Assembly (NCBI GenBank): GCA_965112155.1
Contig: OZ218100.1
Reading direction: 5' to 3' (one strand)
Length of the DNA: 64,000 bases
Source: Podarcis liolepis
Taxonomy: Eukaryota
A program made the position numbers and the translations under genes. The number at the start of each line of letters is the position of its first letter. The first letter of the stretch is position 1. The notes beneath the pieces are model-generated. The model was not told where the DNA came from. It worked only from the letters and a program-made list of their open reading frames with translations, and ran no database searches. This document shows, piece after piece, positions 18,901 through 63,725 of this stretch.

Positions 18901-21900
18901 TGCCTTTACATTGTATACTGTTATTAATTGATTTTCATATATTATCTGACTATGATAGGTTGGTTCACAGTGATGCTTTGTGAGCCACTGCTTGTCTGTT
19001 TACACAGAATTAAGTTCACTGACAATATCATAAAATGTGGGGTGGATTACACTAGTGTTAAGTAGAGCTGCTTGAACAATTGTATTCAACAATTGTTCAT
19101 TAATGGATCTGCATCATAGAGTGAAGTATTGAACAGAGAGCCACAGAGATACCCTAGGCCAATTCCTTTTCTTGTTTTTATAAATGACTTGGATCGGAGT
19201 GTGAAGGGGATGCTTATCTGATCTGCAGATGATCCAAAATTGGGAGGAATATCTAACACGGTATAATATATCAAAATCGTAGAATTGTAGAGTTGGATGG
19301 TTTTTAAATAGCTGGGACATTGGCTAAAACCAACAAAATTAAATTCAACAGAAAAGTCTTGTATGTAGGTATAAAATAAAAAAATAAAAGGATGAGAGAG
19401 GCAGACATAACAGTTTTCAAATGTCTAAAGGACTGACATGCAGAAGATAGAACAGACTTATTATCTCTTTCTCTGGAGGGCAACAGAGGTGGAAATTTCA
19501 GTGGAGAATATTTTGGGTAAATATGAGGAGAAACATCCTACCAAAAAGAGCTGTAAGTTTTGTTTGACAGTGAAACATACATCTCAGAAGGTGGTGTTCT
19601 TTCCTTTGCTGGAGCTATTTAAACAGAAGCTTAATGGCTATTTATTAGGGAGATGAAGTTGCATTATGCACTGCAGATTCTGCACTGAGCAGCAGTATTG
19701 GACATGATGACCTCCAAGGTTCCTGTCAACTCTGTAATTGATTTTATGTGTGTTTAGGGCTGAAACCTTAATTTAATATATTGAGCTTCAATCCTAAATA
19801 CAATTTATCCAAACTAAGATTCATAATACAGTGGTTCTTTCTTCTGGGTAAATATGCAATAGGATTGTTCTGTAAAGCCAAAATTGTATGCATGCTTACC
19901 TAGATTTAAGCCTTGAACACAGTGGGACAAACATCTAAGTAAATATGCACAGAAATACAGATTTGCTTGGGTGGAAATACTTGCAGTTGTACATATACAT
20001 TAAAATCAAAACCACTAATATCTGAGGAAGCATTGGGCTGCAAGACTATAGCCTTTCTTTGAATAAATTCAAATGAAATAAACAGAATATACTTGCAGAT
20101 AAATTTGCTTAGCAGTAGGGTGTTGGTGTCATTTTCCATGATATTCAAATTAATAATTCACTAGCACCTTCCCTTGATTTACATTGCTTTTCCTGTCCTG
20201 ACACATCTGTTAGCATAGTTTGCAGTGGAGACTATGACTTATAACTGTAGGCGTATTATGGGAACTATAAATCATTTATAAGTAGATGTTGTTTTCCCTT
20301 GTTTCATTTTAATAGAATGGATCATAGCTTCAACATCTGTCAAGGGTTTGGGTCAGTCTTTTAGGAAGATATAGATCTGTTTCTTAACCATTTGACAAAA
20401 TAAAAAAATTCCTTCCAGTAGCACCTTAAAGACCAACTAAGTTAGTTCTTGGTATGAGCTTTTGTGTGCATGCACACTTCTTCAGATAAGTCTTTAAGGT
20501 GCTACTGGAAGGAATTTTTTTATTTTGACTATGGCAGACCAACACGGCTACCTATCTGTAACTTTAACCATTTGAGTTTTCATTCTCATCAAGTCTTCAA
20601 AAGAGAAACAGAAACATACACTACAATTATCCAACTAGACTATAACTCAAATATTTACTTCAGCTTTTACAATTTTTTTAATGAAAGTATGATGGCCCTC
20701 TTCAGGCAGTCTTCTTCAGTGTTAAGTTTACAAGTACAGTGGTACCTCAGGTTAAGTACTTAATTCGTTCCGGAGGTCCGTACTTAACCTGAAACTGTTC
20801 TTAACCTGAAGCACCACTTTAGCTAATGGGGCCTCCTGCCACCGTGCCACCGGAGCCCGATTTCTGTTCTTATCCTGAAGCAAAGTTCTTAACCTGAAGC
20901 ACTATTTCTGGGTTAGCGGAGTGTGTAACCTGAAGTGTATGTAACCTGAAGCGTATGTAACCCGAGGTACCACTGTACATGGGGAGTCATGGAGACACTA
21001 GCCCCTTGCATTCTACCCAGAAGCATGTAGACAGCTGAACTTAATTTTTCAGAATCAGTGCTGTATGCAGTAGCAGTTGGTTTGTTGGCATGGGTGGTGT
21101 GGCATTGCTCGGACTTCCCAACCCCAAACATTGTTACTGGCTACTATGACAGGAGAGGAGCTTGAAACAGTACAGATGCAGCAGCAGAGCCAACCCAACA
21201 CTCCCACTGCTGCCCCCACACTAAGCTCCCCTCCCCCTTACACCTGTCCTTCTTGGTAACTGGCAGCAATGTTCAATGTTGGAAAGCCAGGTAAGCAGGA
21301 TTGCTCTGCTGACTGGTACTGAGTACATGATTCCAGCTAATTCTGTCCATTAACAGTCAAATTTTCAGCACAATATTCAGCACAAACTGTAGCCTCTTCA
21401 AGGGAAGATCCACATAGAGCACATTTATCCAGTCAGGAAGTTACCAAAGCATGCATCCCTGTGGTCAGGCCATCTTCATCCAGGAATGGCCATCGTTGAT
21501 GAACCAGCTGGAACTGAGCAAAAGTACTCCACACAACTGAAACCATCTGGGCTTCAAATTACAGTGCCGAATCAAAGAGTTTCCCCAAATTATGCAAGTT
21601 TCTTTAGGGAGAGTAAAACCCATCTGGAACAGGCTGGGTTAGAAATATTCACCATTCCATTACTGTTTTAAATTGTAAACCGCCCTGTGATCTTTGGATG
21701 AAGGACAGGATAGATATTGAATAAATAATAATAATACTGCCTCCACTCCATTCCTGCCTTCAAGCAATAGTCCGGCATCTTAGATCCTCCCATTCTATTG
21801 GCTCAGTCTTCATGAGCACATATGAACATTTTTCTTGCTAAACAGGTAAAGTCAGTGTCTGCATGTGTCTACAGGACTGTGAACTGTTGATGCTAAAAAG

Positions 21901-35000: not shown

Positions 35001-38000
35001 AGACAGACAGACAGAGGAACGAGGGATGTGGTTCTATTACATTACAGGAAACACAATGGTCACTTCATATATGATACCTGCTAATTTCCAGAGTGTATGA
35101 AGCAGCCATAATACTTGTGTGATATGCATGTTTGTGATAAGATGTTCCTTTGTCCCCATTAATTTACTCTTGAAAAGTGTTGAAACATTAGCTAGCAAAC
35201 CTTTTTAATGCTGTGTTGATGCTGTGATGTATAATGCAATCCTTCTGAGATCAGTAGGTAAGGATATAAATATAAATGCCACATGATGCTTAATTTTAGA
35301 GATGTTGCTTGACTTCTGGAAGATGTATCTGGCTTTAGTTTGTTACTGCTGTAACAGCAAACCTGCTTATCCTGGGAGTAAGCCCCCTTAACACAAAATG
35401 GCTTATTTCTGAATAGGCATGTATAAGATTGCACTGTTGGTCCACATAGTTCTTTCCCAAAATGTGAGGTATTAAATTGGATTAAATGTGGCTAAGTTGG
35501 TCATGTGTTTAAAGATCTCCCATTGAAATTGTGGGTCCTGTCCCTTATTTCATTTGCAGTTTTTATAACAATTTATTTTAATTACCATTTTTGCTGTTCA
35601 TCTCGTTATTTTATTTTTTGCCGTTAATGCAATAAGATCACATGTTTTGTACATACATTCTTTTGTTCACACGTTAAACTACTACTTTTTCAAAAATTTT
35701 GTTTACCCTTTTTAGTTGGGTTGCTTATGAGAAGCCAGAGTTTGCAGGGCATCAGTATTTGCTGGAAGAAGGAGAATACCAGGAATGGATGGACTGGGGT
35801 GGTTATGATGAGCAGGTGCAGTCGCTGAGGCCTGTTCTAGGGGTAAGTTTAAAAATGATGAAAACAAGTGTAGACTGAGGAAAACACATAATAACGTTTG
35901 TGGTTCGCTCTGTTTTGCTTCATCCCACTGTCTTTGTTTGCATGGAGGGGGGGATTGAGAGTGGGAAGACGTTTTGCCCTTCTCATAAAATTCCATTCAA
36001 TCCCCCCCCCCATGCTCCCCCATATCCAGTATGTGGGGTGGGTGGGTGAGTGCAAAAGAGGGAGGGAAACAGAAACCTGGTGGATCACAAACAGCAGGCC
36101 TAATTTGGACGTGCATCCAAATATGGAATGTACAGGCATGCATACAAAGGAGATGTTGGTTTGAATGTGTTTTTGAGTATGTATTCCATTGAAAGAACTG
36201 CTGCTTGACTAGACTGTATAGTAGACAGAAGCTTTCCTGGGGCTGCTGCCTGATAATGTGCAAGTTTGGGCAAACATTGTCAGCCTGCCCAATGCCAGAA
36301 ATCAGCTATATAGCTACAGCAGCAGATGCCAGAGAAAAGAGGAAGACAGGGTGGATCAGAGAAGACGGAGGAGTGCCAGGGATTTCAACCTCTCTTGTTT
36401 TCTCTGGAGGAGGAGAAAAGTAGGCAGGCACCCATCCTGGTGGCTAAGGGGAGAAACAAGAGCAAGTCAGCCTCTAATCTGAAGGCCAGGAAGGAATCTG
36501 GGAAAGAGAGGCATGGTTATTTGTGGCCTTGCTTGGCCCAGCTTGACCAGTACAGAGTGCTTTCATTTGGACTTCCTTTATTTCTGTTCTCACATTAAAG
36601 CTGGCCTGTATTCATCAACATAACTCTGAACACAGGACAACAGTTCCAGCATAGTGTTGTCTGTTGCTAGATGGAACCAGCAGGTTAAAGACAGAAGCAG
36701 TGCAATGCTTACAAGAAACTGCATCAGCGTTTTGATACACACTTCAGTGTATACCCATATTTAAAGTGCTTTAAAGTTTAAGCCGGCGTCTGCCCTTGCA
36801 ATTTAAAGATGTGGAGCACCAATTCTGCAAGGCCACTTCTTTCCCCTGCCACCGCATATTGTTTTAACTATGCAAGGCATCTTTTCTCCTTCCAATTTAA
36901 ATAAATCTTTTGAGTTTTGGAGTGGACTTCAGAGGAAGTATGTCTTTTACAGTGTAGGGCAGGGGTGGGAAACCTTAATGCACCCAACATCTGCACCCAA
37001 AACACCTGCTTAGAGTTATATTCTTCTATCACAGAGACTGTATTTCTTTTGCCTTGATGGCTTTCTGTTGTTTTCTTTCTTTCCACAGAGTTTTATGCAA
37101 CCTCACATGATAATGTATGCTGAAAAAGACTTTGGGACTAAAAGTTCCAATATAAGCGTTTCAGGAATTGTTTCCCATTTAAAGGATACTGGCTACGGAC
37201 TAAGGACTCAATCCATAAATGTGTTAAGTGGAGTGTAAGTCAGATGTGTAGCTTCATTTTCATTTCAAATGGTTAATTTGCTGTAAAGACATAAGTACAA
37301 GGAAAAGAGGCCTGAATCAGTAACTCGGTATTACTTCTTTGTTGTCTTTGTATGTGTTTCCTGTTGTTATAGCTGTTAATAGTGTTGTGTTGCAGAAAGG
37401 ATAATCTGTACTGTTCCTACCATGCCGATTAGTCTTCTAGATTAGGTGTATGAAATGAGAGCAACATAGCAATCTTCATCCAGCACCTATGGTCGTGTGT
37501 CTGTTGCTCCTAGAAGTAATTGAGTACTACTAAACAGATATTTTCATCAGAACATGCATTGAGGGTGTACTAGTTCAAGACAGCCTTGGCAAGCCATGGT
37601 TTATGAAGTTGAGGGTGCGTGACACCCATCCTTTCACATACCAGCTGAACATTTGCAGCATAGCCTTAGTGTTTGCAGCACTAGAAGCCTGATACATTTA
37701 TTTGTCCAAGAGACTGGCCAAGCCTGCTTTATTTTCAAAATTTCTATTGCATGTGATGTTCAAGTATAAACATGTCCCATTTGAGTTTGATCTTCATGGT
37801 TAACATACTGTTCATCCCTCCGTCACTTTGACTAAGCAGTTTACAGAGCATGTTGGGTGTGTGTTTAAGGCATATGCCTCAAATGATTAATCAACAGTGT
37901 GTTGATGGATCTGTTAAACATGAGTCAGAATAAAAGAAAATGGTAAACTTTTAAAATGTGACACTTCAATGGGCAAAACATACAGTACTTTCATGCTAGG

Positions 38001-41000
38001 CATGCTTCATATGCCTGGTATAATTTTACTGAAATGCAACTTTGCTTTACTAGAGTTTATTATCCAGCCATGTCTTGAACTAAGAAACCTAAAATCTTGC
38101 TTCTTCGGACAGAAACAAACTATGAATAGTGAATTTTAAAAAATTGTATGCATGCACACTTCTTCAGATACACTGAAACAGAAGTTACCAGACCCTTATA
38201 CATAGTGAGAGGGTGGGGAGGGGTATTACTCAGAAGGGTGGTTGAAATGGGTGATTAGCTGATAGGTGTGGTAAACCTGTTGACGACTGTTAACAGGAAA
38301 AAGACCAATTGCAGTCATTAATGGTCATCAACAGGTTTACCACACCTATCAGCCAACCACCCATTCCCACCACCCTTGACTTCTCTTTCAGTGTATCTGA
38401 AGAAGTGTGCATGCACACGAAAGCTCATACCAATAACAAACTTAGTTGTTCTCTAAGATGCTACTGGAAGGAATTTTTTTTATTTTGTTTCGACTACAGC
38501 AGACCAACACAGCTACCTACCTGCAACTAGAACTATGAATAGTGGTTCACTCATAATGCTAAGCCAGTCTCTGCTTTGTTTCCTCCTGGCTTTAGAAAGG
38601 GAGAAGTAGGCAGGCCCCATTTGGGCAGCATGAACCAGCACACTTGCTTGCTCACATTACTAGCCCAATGTGAAATTAGACAATGGTACATAGATCTCTA
38701 AGTTGTTAGTGAACTATATTTATTCATTGGGCTATGCTGAACCGGACTTAAGAAAATTACCTTACTTTCAGAGTAATGATGTCATGCTTTACCATTTTTA
38801 CCTTCCCCATCATAATGTTGCTTAATGTATTTTGGGTGTTTTGAGCTGTAATATTAGAGGCAAACAATATAACATTTCATTATGATGACTTTATAAAATC
38901 CTTGCTGTGTTTGCAAATATATTATTTTTATATGAAGCTAAGTACATTGAGTACAGCTTACTTAATATCAGTCATTTCCTACGATATTCATAATTAAATG
39001 TTTTATTTAATTATTTTTTAAAAATACAATGCATCAATTAATTAGAGCATAAATCATGATTTTTTCCCCCCACAGGTGGGTGGCATATGAAAATCCTGAC
39101 TTCACAGGAGAGCAGTATATCCTTGATAAAGGACTGTATCCCAACTATGGTACATGGGGAGCTAAAAGTTGTAAGATCTCTTCAGTTCAACCCATAATTT
39201 TGGTAAGGTTTGTTTGTTCGTTCTGCTGGGTTTTATTTTATTTCCTACCAAGTTAGCTTGCTCCGTATTTCATTAATCAATATTCTTTCTGTATAATGTA
39301 TATTTCTGGAGTCATATTTGTCTCTTTTTCCCTCCATTTATTTTAGGACAACATGAGTGATCATACGGGGAAATTTAAGGTAAAACATCCAAGCTTTTAC
39401 ATAGCAAATATAGCAAGCTGAATTGAGATAACATAAAAAAAGACGAGTAGAGAGGCTGTAGGCAGAGAGATTCACAAAGTGGAATCAGTACCCTGGGAGG
39501 AGGCAGACTGAGTCCTTGTCAAGTTTTGCCAGATGCTTGAGAGAAAATGTGTATCTAATGCAAATGTCATGGTTCTTTTAATGCAAGAACAAATGTATTT
39601 GCAGGTGATGCTCAGGGTTTCCTAAAATACTCAGGCTTTTGCGAAAGGACTTTTCAATCTTCCCAGGGTGCTTCTCTACATGGTATCATGTAGACATGGC
39701 CAACACATGGAAGGATAATACTGGTTTTGGCAGTGGGGAAGCACCCACAAATTTTGGTTAGCCTTAGCTACTGGCCAAAATGTGCAGTCACCATCAGCCC
39801 TGCTCATCCCCTGACTCTTGAGAGGGATCTTGCCTGATGTTGGCTGAGTTCCAAGGCATTTGGAAGCATAGGAGCGCTCTGCTTCAGAAGCTCAATATGA
39901 CTATAGGTGTGAGTTCCCACCTTTGTCTGAAGTACCAAGCTCAGGAATGGGATCTCATCAAGATTGAAAAATCTCACTGCTTTCAAGTTGAACCAACATT
40001 CAGTCTGTTCAAGCTCTAGCCTGTTTTTCATTCTTCACTGTGACAAGAACACATCAGATCAAAAGATACTGTTGCCAGTGGAGCCCTAACAATAAGGGAA
40101 AAGACAGTTTGTCTATCTTAGAATAAAGTTTCACTTCCAGGTCAGCAAATGAAATCAAGAATTGACTGTCAAATTCTACTACAAAGTCATCTTTGTAAAA
40201 TAGTTTGGAAATACTTCTTACATAAATGTACATTACATACATTTTTAGTTTAGTTTAAAAAAATGTTTTGCTTGTATTCAGAGATAATTAAAATGATATC
40301 AGAATTATTTGTTTAACAACATGGGGTGATACCCAACTAAGTGCATTAGTTAAATTCATTTATTTCTGCAGGTCTTTTCTGACACTCACTATGTTGGAAT
40401 TGTCCTGAGCACAATGTTTAGTGTTTAACGTGACCTGCTTTGTCTTTAAAGGTCCAGCTATTTTCGGAACCAGAGTTCCAGGGTAACTGTCAAATATTTG
40501 AGAAAGATACTTCAGAGATCGAGGAGACATTCCTTGCTATGTCTTCAAAAGTATTATCTGGCAGGTGAGTACGAAATTGCATCATTGAACTCCCAAGCAA
40601 GCAAGCTTCTGAGTGTGCAACAGATACAAACCATCTGGGTAACGCTGAATGGGCTCAGGGTGGATGCATCTTCCCATTTGGGATTAGTGGAATCAAGGTT
40701 TTTGTTCTTAATAGTAAAATCTGTCTAAAAATGTAAGGGAGCAACTAAGGATAATGACAAGCATTTTGTGTATTCAAAAGTGTAGTGGAAGGGATTTGAA
40801 TGCACACTTCTTGGCTTGATAATGATTATTTCCCCACCCTTTAGAATGCATGTCTCTGCTCATTCTGAATAACTTCGCACAAGAACATGTTGATACTGCA
40901 TTGCATGATGCTAAGTCTCTTAAACATATCAGTAAGGAAACATGTATTTTTAAAAGCCCATTAATGGAATATTCTTATTCTTTATTGATGAAGAATAATG

Positions 41001-56598: not shown

Positions 56599-56712
56599 TT
56601 ATTTATCTGTTACATTAATCACCGTTTTTCCACGTGCATGCCCTTCTTCCATCTTCTGGAAGGCCTTGGGAACATCAGAAAAGGAGAAAACTTGATCAAT
56701 AACTGGATGTAT
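56599..56712 (-). CDS. RTN4IP1: RTN4IP1 last coding exon ([37 protein letters not shown])
   Basis: ccccctgcag|ATA acceptor on the - strand; [12 protein letters not shown]-terminal motif of this MDR/quinone oxidoreductase-like protein; TAA at 56599-56601. Confidence 0.95.
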
Positions 56713-63541: not shown

Positions 63542-63725
63542 CTTGAAAGTTTTTGAACCGAACGTCATTCCAGTCCGTAACATGCCATCCGCTACACCAA
63601 GCCTGTCCATGTTGACCAAGAAGGGGGTTATCAAGGAGACATAGGTGGCTCCTGACCATTTTTTGAGGAAATCAGGAGCCCATTTTTCAGTGGATCCACC
63701 AACATTATCTAAGATAAAATCAAAC
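63542..63725 (-). CDS. RTN4IP1: RTN4IP1 exon ([35 protein letters not shown]...SKTFK)
   Basis: ccctag|G TTT ... AAG|gtctgt; 184 nt; within ORF 63533..63814. Confidence 0.95.

Follow-up and report, generated by a model that had tools for sequence, protein, structure and literature searches.

Minimal hammerhead ribozymes have been reported in metazoan Penelope-like elements of fish, Xenopus, turtle and snakes (Cervera and de la Pena 2014, PMC4209133). In that study, these motifs are of type I, with a short stem I, a long stem II and no stem III, and they carry an additional nucleotide that sits between 9 and 10.1, a G10.1-C11.1 pair and a palindrome at 15.2-16.2. They are present in thousands of copies, mostly solo, and opposite-strand pairs lie 100 to 700 bp apart. 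Minimal hammerheads that did not cleave as monomers in vitro, and that showed low cleavage as dimers, are described in the same study. Insertions of EN+ Penelope elements, such as Pen2a_Av, typically consist of head-to-head inverted pLTRs with a junction palindrome, a target-site duplication (TSD) and a 30- to 40-nt tail at one end, and the pLTR contains a TATA box plus an Inr (PMC3846280; PMC8557442 gives the same inverted-pLTR layout for Penelope-like elements). In the green anole Poseidon element PAc (Frangieh et al. 2024, PMC11167929), the hammerhead lies at the pLTR 3' end, the ORF starts at stem II, two internal reverse transcription (RT) start sites bound the tail, and unprocessed RNA is the main template. 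That report also indicates that the anole hammerhead requires the element's protein and that RNA-seq ends are absent at the cleavage site. Finally, non-LTR retrozymes (bioRxiv 10.64898/2026.07.22.740005) are non-coding and PLE-derived, carry a type I hammerhead and form head-to-tail tandem units; the preprint describes them as under-represented in Xenopus introns.

The window analyzed here, a 64,000-nt stretch of Podarcis liolepis DNA, contains a minimal type I hammerhead at 38393-38430 on the + strand, with a predicted cut after C38426. Read from the window, its parts are GTAT (38393-96), the CTGAAGA box (38397-403), an extra A (38404), the perfect 14-nt stem II palindrome GTGTGCATGCACAC (38405-18), GAAA (38419-22), GCTC (38423-26) and ATAC, the 3' strand of stem I (38427-30). 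Stem I has 4 bp, and an AGCU palindrome (AGCT in DNA) occupies 38422-25. Every element of the core named in the original prediction is present in the letters. CUGANGA and GAAA boxes, a UH cut site, a stem I of 4 to 5 bp and the lack of stem III are accompanied by the finer marks of the class: A38404 falls between 9 and 10.1, G38405-C38418 corresponds to the G10.1-C11.1 pair, and 15.1-16.1 is palindromic. The motif thus shares the architecture and the additional signatures of the hammerheads described in PMC4209133, as well as their abundance and their opposite-strand pairing. Unlike what is described there, stem II consists here of a perfect 14-nt palindrome, and an intermolecular duplex is predicted to compete with it.

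A descriptor of the minimal hammerhead matched neither 100 dinucleotide-shuffled versions of the window (0 hits) nor 3.9 Mb of reversed DNA (0 hits). On both strands of 1.9 Mb of real sequence, the same descriptor returned 115 matches, every one from a single family; 105 were identical and the other 10 differed by single-copy changes. No second hammerhead family was found in the 1.9 Mb scanned, no covariation was available in the stems, and the 64-kb window holds no second intact core. A search with Rfam models, in answer to the hammerhead search proposed with the original prediction, gave no hammerhead among 19 matches at E <= 10 over 36000-41000, and the motif does not qualify as a canonical hammerhead. 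This miss was expected because the motif lacks stem III. The miRNA matches from the Rfam scan (for example MIR9672, 57 of 74 bits) were rejected as generic hairpin matches below the gathering scores.

Genome-wide (1.57 Gb), there are 9,879 exact copies of the 38-nt core (4,999 forward and 4,880 reverse; control 0). In 15 longer sister copies, the end of an ORF lies directly upstream of the pLTR. The longest sister encodes a Pfam GIY-YIG domain (PF01541, L178:5199-5978, E 9e-6, over the cut-off), a C-x4-C-xx-C motif precedes GIY-YIG in both L154 and L178, and the longest open stretch among the copies examined is 260 aa. A CX2-5CxxC motif upstream of GIY-YIG is the mark of Neptune and Nematis elements in PMC8557442, and Neptune elements have been reported in vertebrates (PMC4209133); we use the label Neptune-type because of these two points. 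The family combines a C-terminal GIY-YIG upstream of the pLTR with an inverted 5'-truncated pLTR, a one-sided tail and a TSD, as seen in EN+ Penelope elements. By these sequence features, the insert in the window is a truncated, non-coding Neptune-type Penelope-like element, and the core features together with the GIY-YIG sisters uphold the earlier assignment of the hammerhead to the Penelope type. The extra Cys motif of Neptune/Nematis sets the present family apart from the Poseidon element PAc, whose hammerhead position it shares and whose pair of RT start sites and unprocessed template it would share. We considered and rejected a non-LTR retrozyme, which needs at least two head-to-tail units with hammerheads; the window has a single core in an inverted layout. 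The insert is likewise non-coding and PLE-derived with a type I hammerhead but, unlike the tandem retrozymes, it is one inverted stub derived from an element that encodes an endonuclease. Penelope stubs of this kind are common, and the locus is ordinary. The alignment supplements of PMC4209133 may already contain the present reptile motif. Regarding copy density, we counted 100 exact cores in the first 5.8 Mb of G000:C1 versus 14 clusters, all ages included, across the 1 Mb taken from three giant genes.

The insert comprises 399 bp (38132-38530) and is flanked by a perfect 14-nt direct repeat, the left (38118-38131) and right (38531-38544) copies of the TSD. An antisense pLTR arm (38132-38293, - strand), recognized from inverted repeats and arm alignment, ends at the short 3' end of the family and retains a mutated TATA region at 38195-38204, where other copies have T at 38201. 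It is followed by the sense pLTR arm (38294-38530, + strand), which ends in the tail and was delimited by arm alignment and comparison with the young copy L007. The extra 5' stretch of the sense arm (38294-38317, +) forms the hairpin loop, and the inversion point lies inside a short palindrome at about 38287-38296. The arms pair through 38146-85 with 38379-418 (40 nt, 95%) and through 38234-93 with 38318-77 (60 nt, 88%). The original prediction had placed an arm complementary to the core at 38145-38178 and 38231-38294; the complementarity stood, and the coordinates were a few bases off. Compared with Pen2a_Av-type insertions, with which it shares the head-to-head arms, the junction palindrome, the TSD and the tail, the window copy differs in that it has only the two pLTR ends, lacks an ORF, and later lost a segment from each arm. 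Hand reading gives a frame of 39 codons that starts at an ATG within stem II and continues to the insert's end (38411-38530, +), and the anole ORF likewise starts at stem II. The frame is probably not conserved, judging from young copies, which stop after 10 codons.

We compared this layout with other copies of the family in three sets of tiles: 73 of ten kb surrounding the 100 exact cores listed first, 15 gap tiles, and 100 from three giant genes. Pairs among the 199 arms were head-to-head in 62 cases, tail-to-tail in 0 and direct in 7. In 54 of the 62 head-to-head pairs, one arm had a short end (about +80 to +104) and the other a tail end (+115 or further), and TSDs of 8 to 16 nt were present in 50 of 54 examined pairs. 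The window copy, with its short end on the left and its tail end on the right, matches the family layout. These results argue that the inverted arm is likely a by-product of integration. The family encodes a GIY-YIG endonuclease upstream of the repeat and leaves TSDs of 8 to 16 nt; both cut DNA strands would prime RT at two fixed internal sites, about +90 to +98 and +123 to +129 nt from the core. Such two-site priming would yield one short arm and one tail arm, both pointing outward. In a head-to-head insert the antisense arm comes first in either direction of transcription, and masking of the core therefore follows from geometry and is likely incidental. Thousands of young stubs represent a good natural data set for studying how Penelope RT primes and ends. 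The short-3'-end arm extended further 5' in 35 of the 54 pairs, the tail arm in 10, and the two were equal in 9. Many shorter arms begin within the stem II palindrome (+8 to +25), which suggests fold-back or stalling at this palindrome.

The 5' ends of the arms bear on the RNA that serves as template. Arm 5' ends fell at -4 to +1 in 54 of 199 cases and at +31 to +37 in 5 of 199; since the C1 loci were chosen by exact core, 5' ends at or before 0 are inflated, and partner arms are less affected. Near the cut site (+34), 1 of 62 shorter partner arms started, with no pile-up of 5' ends. Young copies, as read from L007, have a TATA box at -33 and a TCAGT with its A at -3, which would represent a promoter-type start just 5' of stem I; in the window the Inr-like TCAGT is at 38388-92 (+). 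The template would usually be uncleaved RNA, with arms passing through the cut site and piling up at the TATA/Inr-like start. The scarcity of arm starts at the cut site agrees with the unprocessed template of the anole element.

The window copy has decayed. A 47-nt deletion at 38377/38378 removed the TATA box from the sense arm, and about 53 nt, from GAAA to the cut site, are deleted from the antisense arm, leaving no hammerhead on the - strand. Since insertion the arms have diverged by drift: 9 of 100 aligned positions (9%) are mismatched, several of them CpG-type, and there is one deletion per arm. Judging from the arms, the copy probably began as a two-core hairpin and lost the core that the host does not transcribe. 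The right arm has about 6 private changes in 153 nt and none in the 38-nt core; we estimate the chance of this at about 0.18, so there is no sign of selection on the core. In two other organisms, contigs cross from the unique flank to the left arm, and about 1,150 nt of flank show 5 and 9 changed letters, respectively. This shared junction indicates that the insertion predates the split of those organisms.

The insert lies in the sense orientation in an intron (37235-39075, + strand) between two crystallin exons of CRYBG1. An exon finder returned a chain of crystallin exons on the + strand of the window. The upstream exon (37089-37234, +) has a weak Pfam Crystall match and RNA reads, the downstream exon (39076-39203, +) matches Pfam Crystall, and the consecutive exons at 40452 and 41149 have AIM1/CRYBG1 (2DAD) as their best PDB match (E 9e-7 and 7e-14). 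In stranded RNA reads from a related organism, exon 37089-37234 reached a depth of 30 to 60 on the + transcript and the intron signal was small. These data agree with the placement originally given, between Greek keys 7 and 8; we obtained these numbers by counting back from the last crystallin exon, on our assumption that CRYBG1 has 12 keys.

The whole insert has a predicted folding energy of -178.5 kcal/mol (z -17.6), the core being enclosed in a duplex, and pair probabilities gave P(stem I) = P(stem II) = 0.00. The idea that the upstream arm sequesters the core is thus borne out by prediction. In the arm-free intron context, P(stem I) was still 0.00 to 0.01, in part because UUUCAG (38386-91) pairs with CUGAAG (38397-402); this predicted local hairpin (38386-38402, +) covers the CUGA box without any arm. 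Only a 56-nt piece starting at A38390 formed stem I (0.76 to 0.88), and extension to the short end or to the tail lowered this to 0.00 to 0.06. Nearest-neighbour energies, which ignore magnesium and protein, were -12.7 kcal/mol for the AGCU dimer, -15.6 for two monomers and -32.6 for a dimer through the 14-nt palindrome. Cleavage as a dimer through AGCU, as first envisaged, is therefore disfavored in prediction against both competitors. In the pre-mRNA the arms would pair as a duplex of about 100 bp over the core. Without that duplex the monomer would lack stem III, the local hairpin would cover it, and it would have no sense partner in the window. These models predict that the hammerhead is silent in CRYBG1 pre-mRNA with or without the arm. 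Earlier work cited in PMC2995048 found splicing still possible after hammerhead cleavage within an intron. The cost to the host would be small either way, so masking would be incidental. A counterpoint to this view is that the window core is fully intact and its antisense twin is broken.

Two raw RNA runs from a related organism had no place with many read ends, and 91 to 92% of the placed reads came from other copies. These runs are uninformative for the locus and weak for cleavage; locus-specific intron reads were nearly absent. Family-derived reads were seen on both strands, at a depth reaching about 300 in 1.9 Gb of reads; copies are therefore present in either direction in many host transcripts.

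Taken together, we hold it to be likely that the insert is an aged non-coding Neptune-type Penelope stub, with head-to-head arms that probably stem from integration and a hammerhead that should, by prediction, stay silent in CRYBG1 pre-mRNA whether the arm is there or not. A bolder extension, which we regard as doubtful, is that the thousands of stubs preserve an in vivo record of the Penelope mechanism: both cut DNA ends would copy one uncut capped RNA, which begins three bases ahead of stem I, from a fixed pair of internal sites, and the UUUCAG/CUGAAG hairpin would hold the hammerhead off in read-through and host transcripts, being absent solely from transcripts with the element's own start. 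If true, this would explain about 10,000 intact cores without intronic strand bias. Against such a built-in hairpin, longer own-start transcripts are also predicted to lack stem I (P 0.00 to 0.06).

The original prediction went further and proposed that inverted insertions are tolerated in sense introns through masking, with a bias in orientation or masking to be sought genome-wide. We examined this in a sample of intronic cores covering 0.1% of the genome. A core was scored as masked when an opposite-strand arm at most 1.5 kb away covered at least 12 nt of it, and gene strand was taken from Pfam exon matches, homologue search and predicted exons; several gene names in this count were given by us on the basis of the peptides. 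Between annotated exons lay 41 of 122 intact cores, and leaving out the pre-selected window copy gave 40. The 81 left-out cores comprise copies outside the exon span (CNIH1-, NEMF-, SOS2-, KLHDC2-, TXNDC16- and VCPKMT-like), those in unannotated tiles and the uncertain PRPF39-, RPS29- and TRIM9-like ones. Unmasked cores were 7 sense to 8 antisense and masked cores 12 to 13 (Fisher p = 1.0), two-core loci being counted once per orientation so that the masked cells are not independent. The unmasked sense share of 0.47 has a 95% interval of 0.21 to 0.73 on 15 cores and is compatible with a two- to threefold depletion. The masked fraction was 26 of 41 inside annotated introns versus 52 of 81 elsewhere. 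An antisense lean of 5 to 1 among solo copies, seen by BLAST coverage in 14 clusters from 1 Mb of giant genes, was gone in the larger sample. The copies sampled are mostly young (about 98% identity), leaving little time for weak selection to act. That masking is strongly required is unlikely, and a mild bias is compatible with the sample. This first small test gave no indication of a need for masking among intronic Penelope hammerheads, in line with the view that these minimal ribozymes stay silent when the element's protein is missing. The titles and abstract openings of the literature searched contained no mention of a strand bias of Penelope minimal hammerheads in introns.

A mild cost of sense copies could arise from a cryptic 3' splice site (TTTCAG/TG), the TATA/Inr promoter or the long hairpin instead of from cleavage. 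The strong acceptor-like stretch with TTTCAG at 38380-38391 (+), whose splice role would follow from its sequence, and the loss of the TATA box from the window sense arm are in its favor. So is L027 (G000:C1 ~2624500-2625100), a partial tandem in which CAACAG of the first unit is joined straight to TGTATC, as if a pLTR intron of about 100 nt had been spliced out; a microhomology deletion could also account for this joint. The 15 unmasked cores have no orientation bias and none of the 15 RNA joints shown, of 95, leads into the element, and we judge such a cost improbable.

Somewhat less probable still is that a sense hammerhead would cut the host pre-mRNA and that inverted insertions persist in sense introns through the upstream arm lock. 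Predicted pairing of the arm spans the entire CUGAAGA/stem II region, the window core is intact, the preprint describes avoidance of Xenopus introns by retrozymes, and the giant genes alone have 0 sense to 3 antisense unmasked intact cores. C1 genes show the opposite (7 to 5), and the 7 unmasked sense cores are spread over introns of four genes (MDGA2-, NIN-, NID2- and RTRAF-like). Furthermore, the masked fraction is no higher in sense (12/19) than in antisense (13/21), arm geometry is fixed by integration (62 to 0), and the monomer, inactive in the published assays (PMC4209133, PMC11167929), is predicted to misfold here without the arm too.

An exaptation of this copy for CRYBG1 regulation, be it as a ribozyme switch in the intron or as a double-stranded RNA or ADAR substrate, is very improbable: the insertion is common to the contigs of two other organisms and the core has no private change, but with so few letters differing in the flank the sharing carries little weight, chance can account for the intact core, and both arms are decaying.

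Other features were noted in passing. Tile L217 (G000:C1 ~4540600-4545000) contains retrovirus-like gag/pol frames. In the window, predicted exons at 56623-56712 and 63657-63725 on the - strand, which we take to resemble RTN4IP1, lie tail-to-tail with CRYBG1. Another CRYBG1 intron has a further inverted stub of the Penelope family described here (20396-20563), younger than the first and flanked by a 12-nt TSD (20384-95 and 20564-75); the core of this stub, on the - strand, reads AAAA in place of GAAA.
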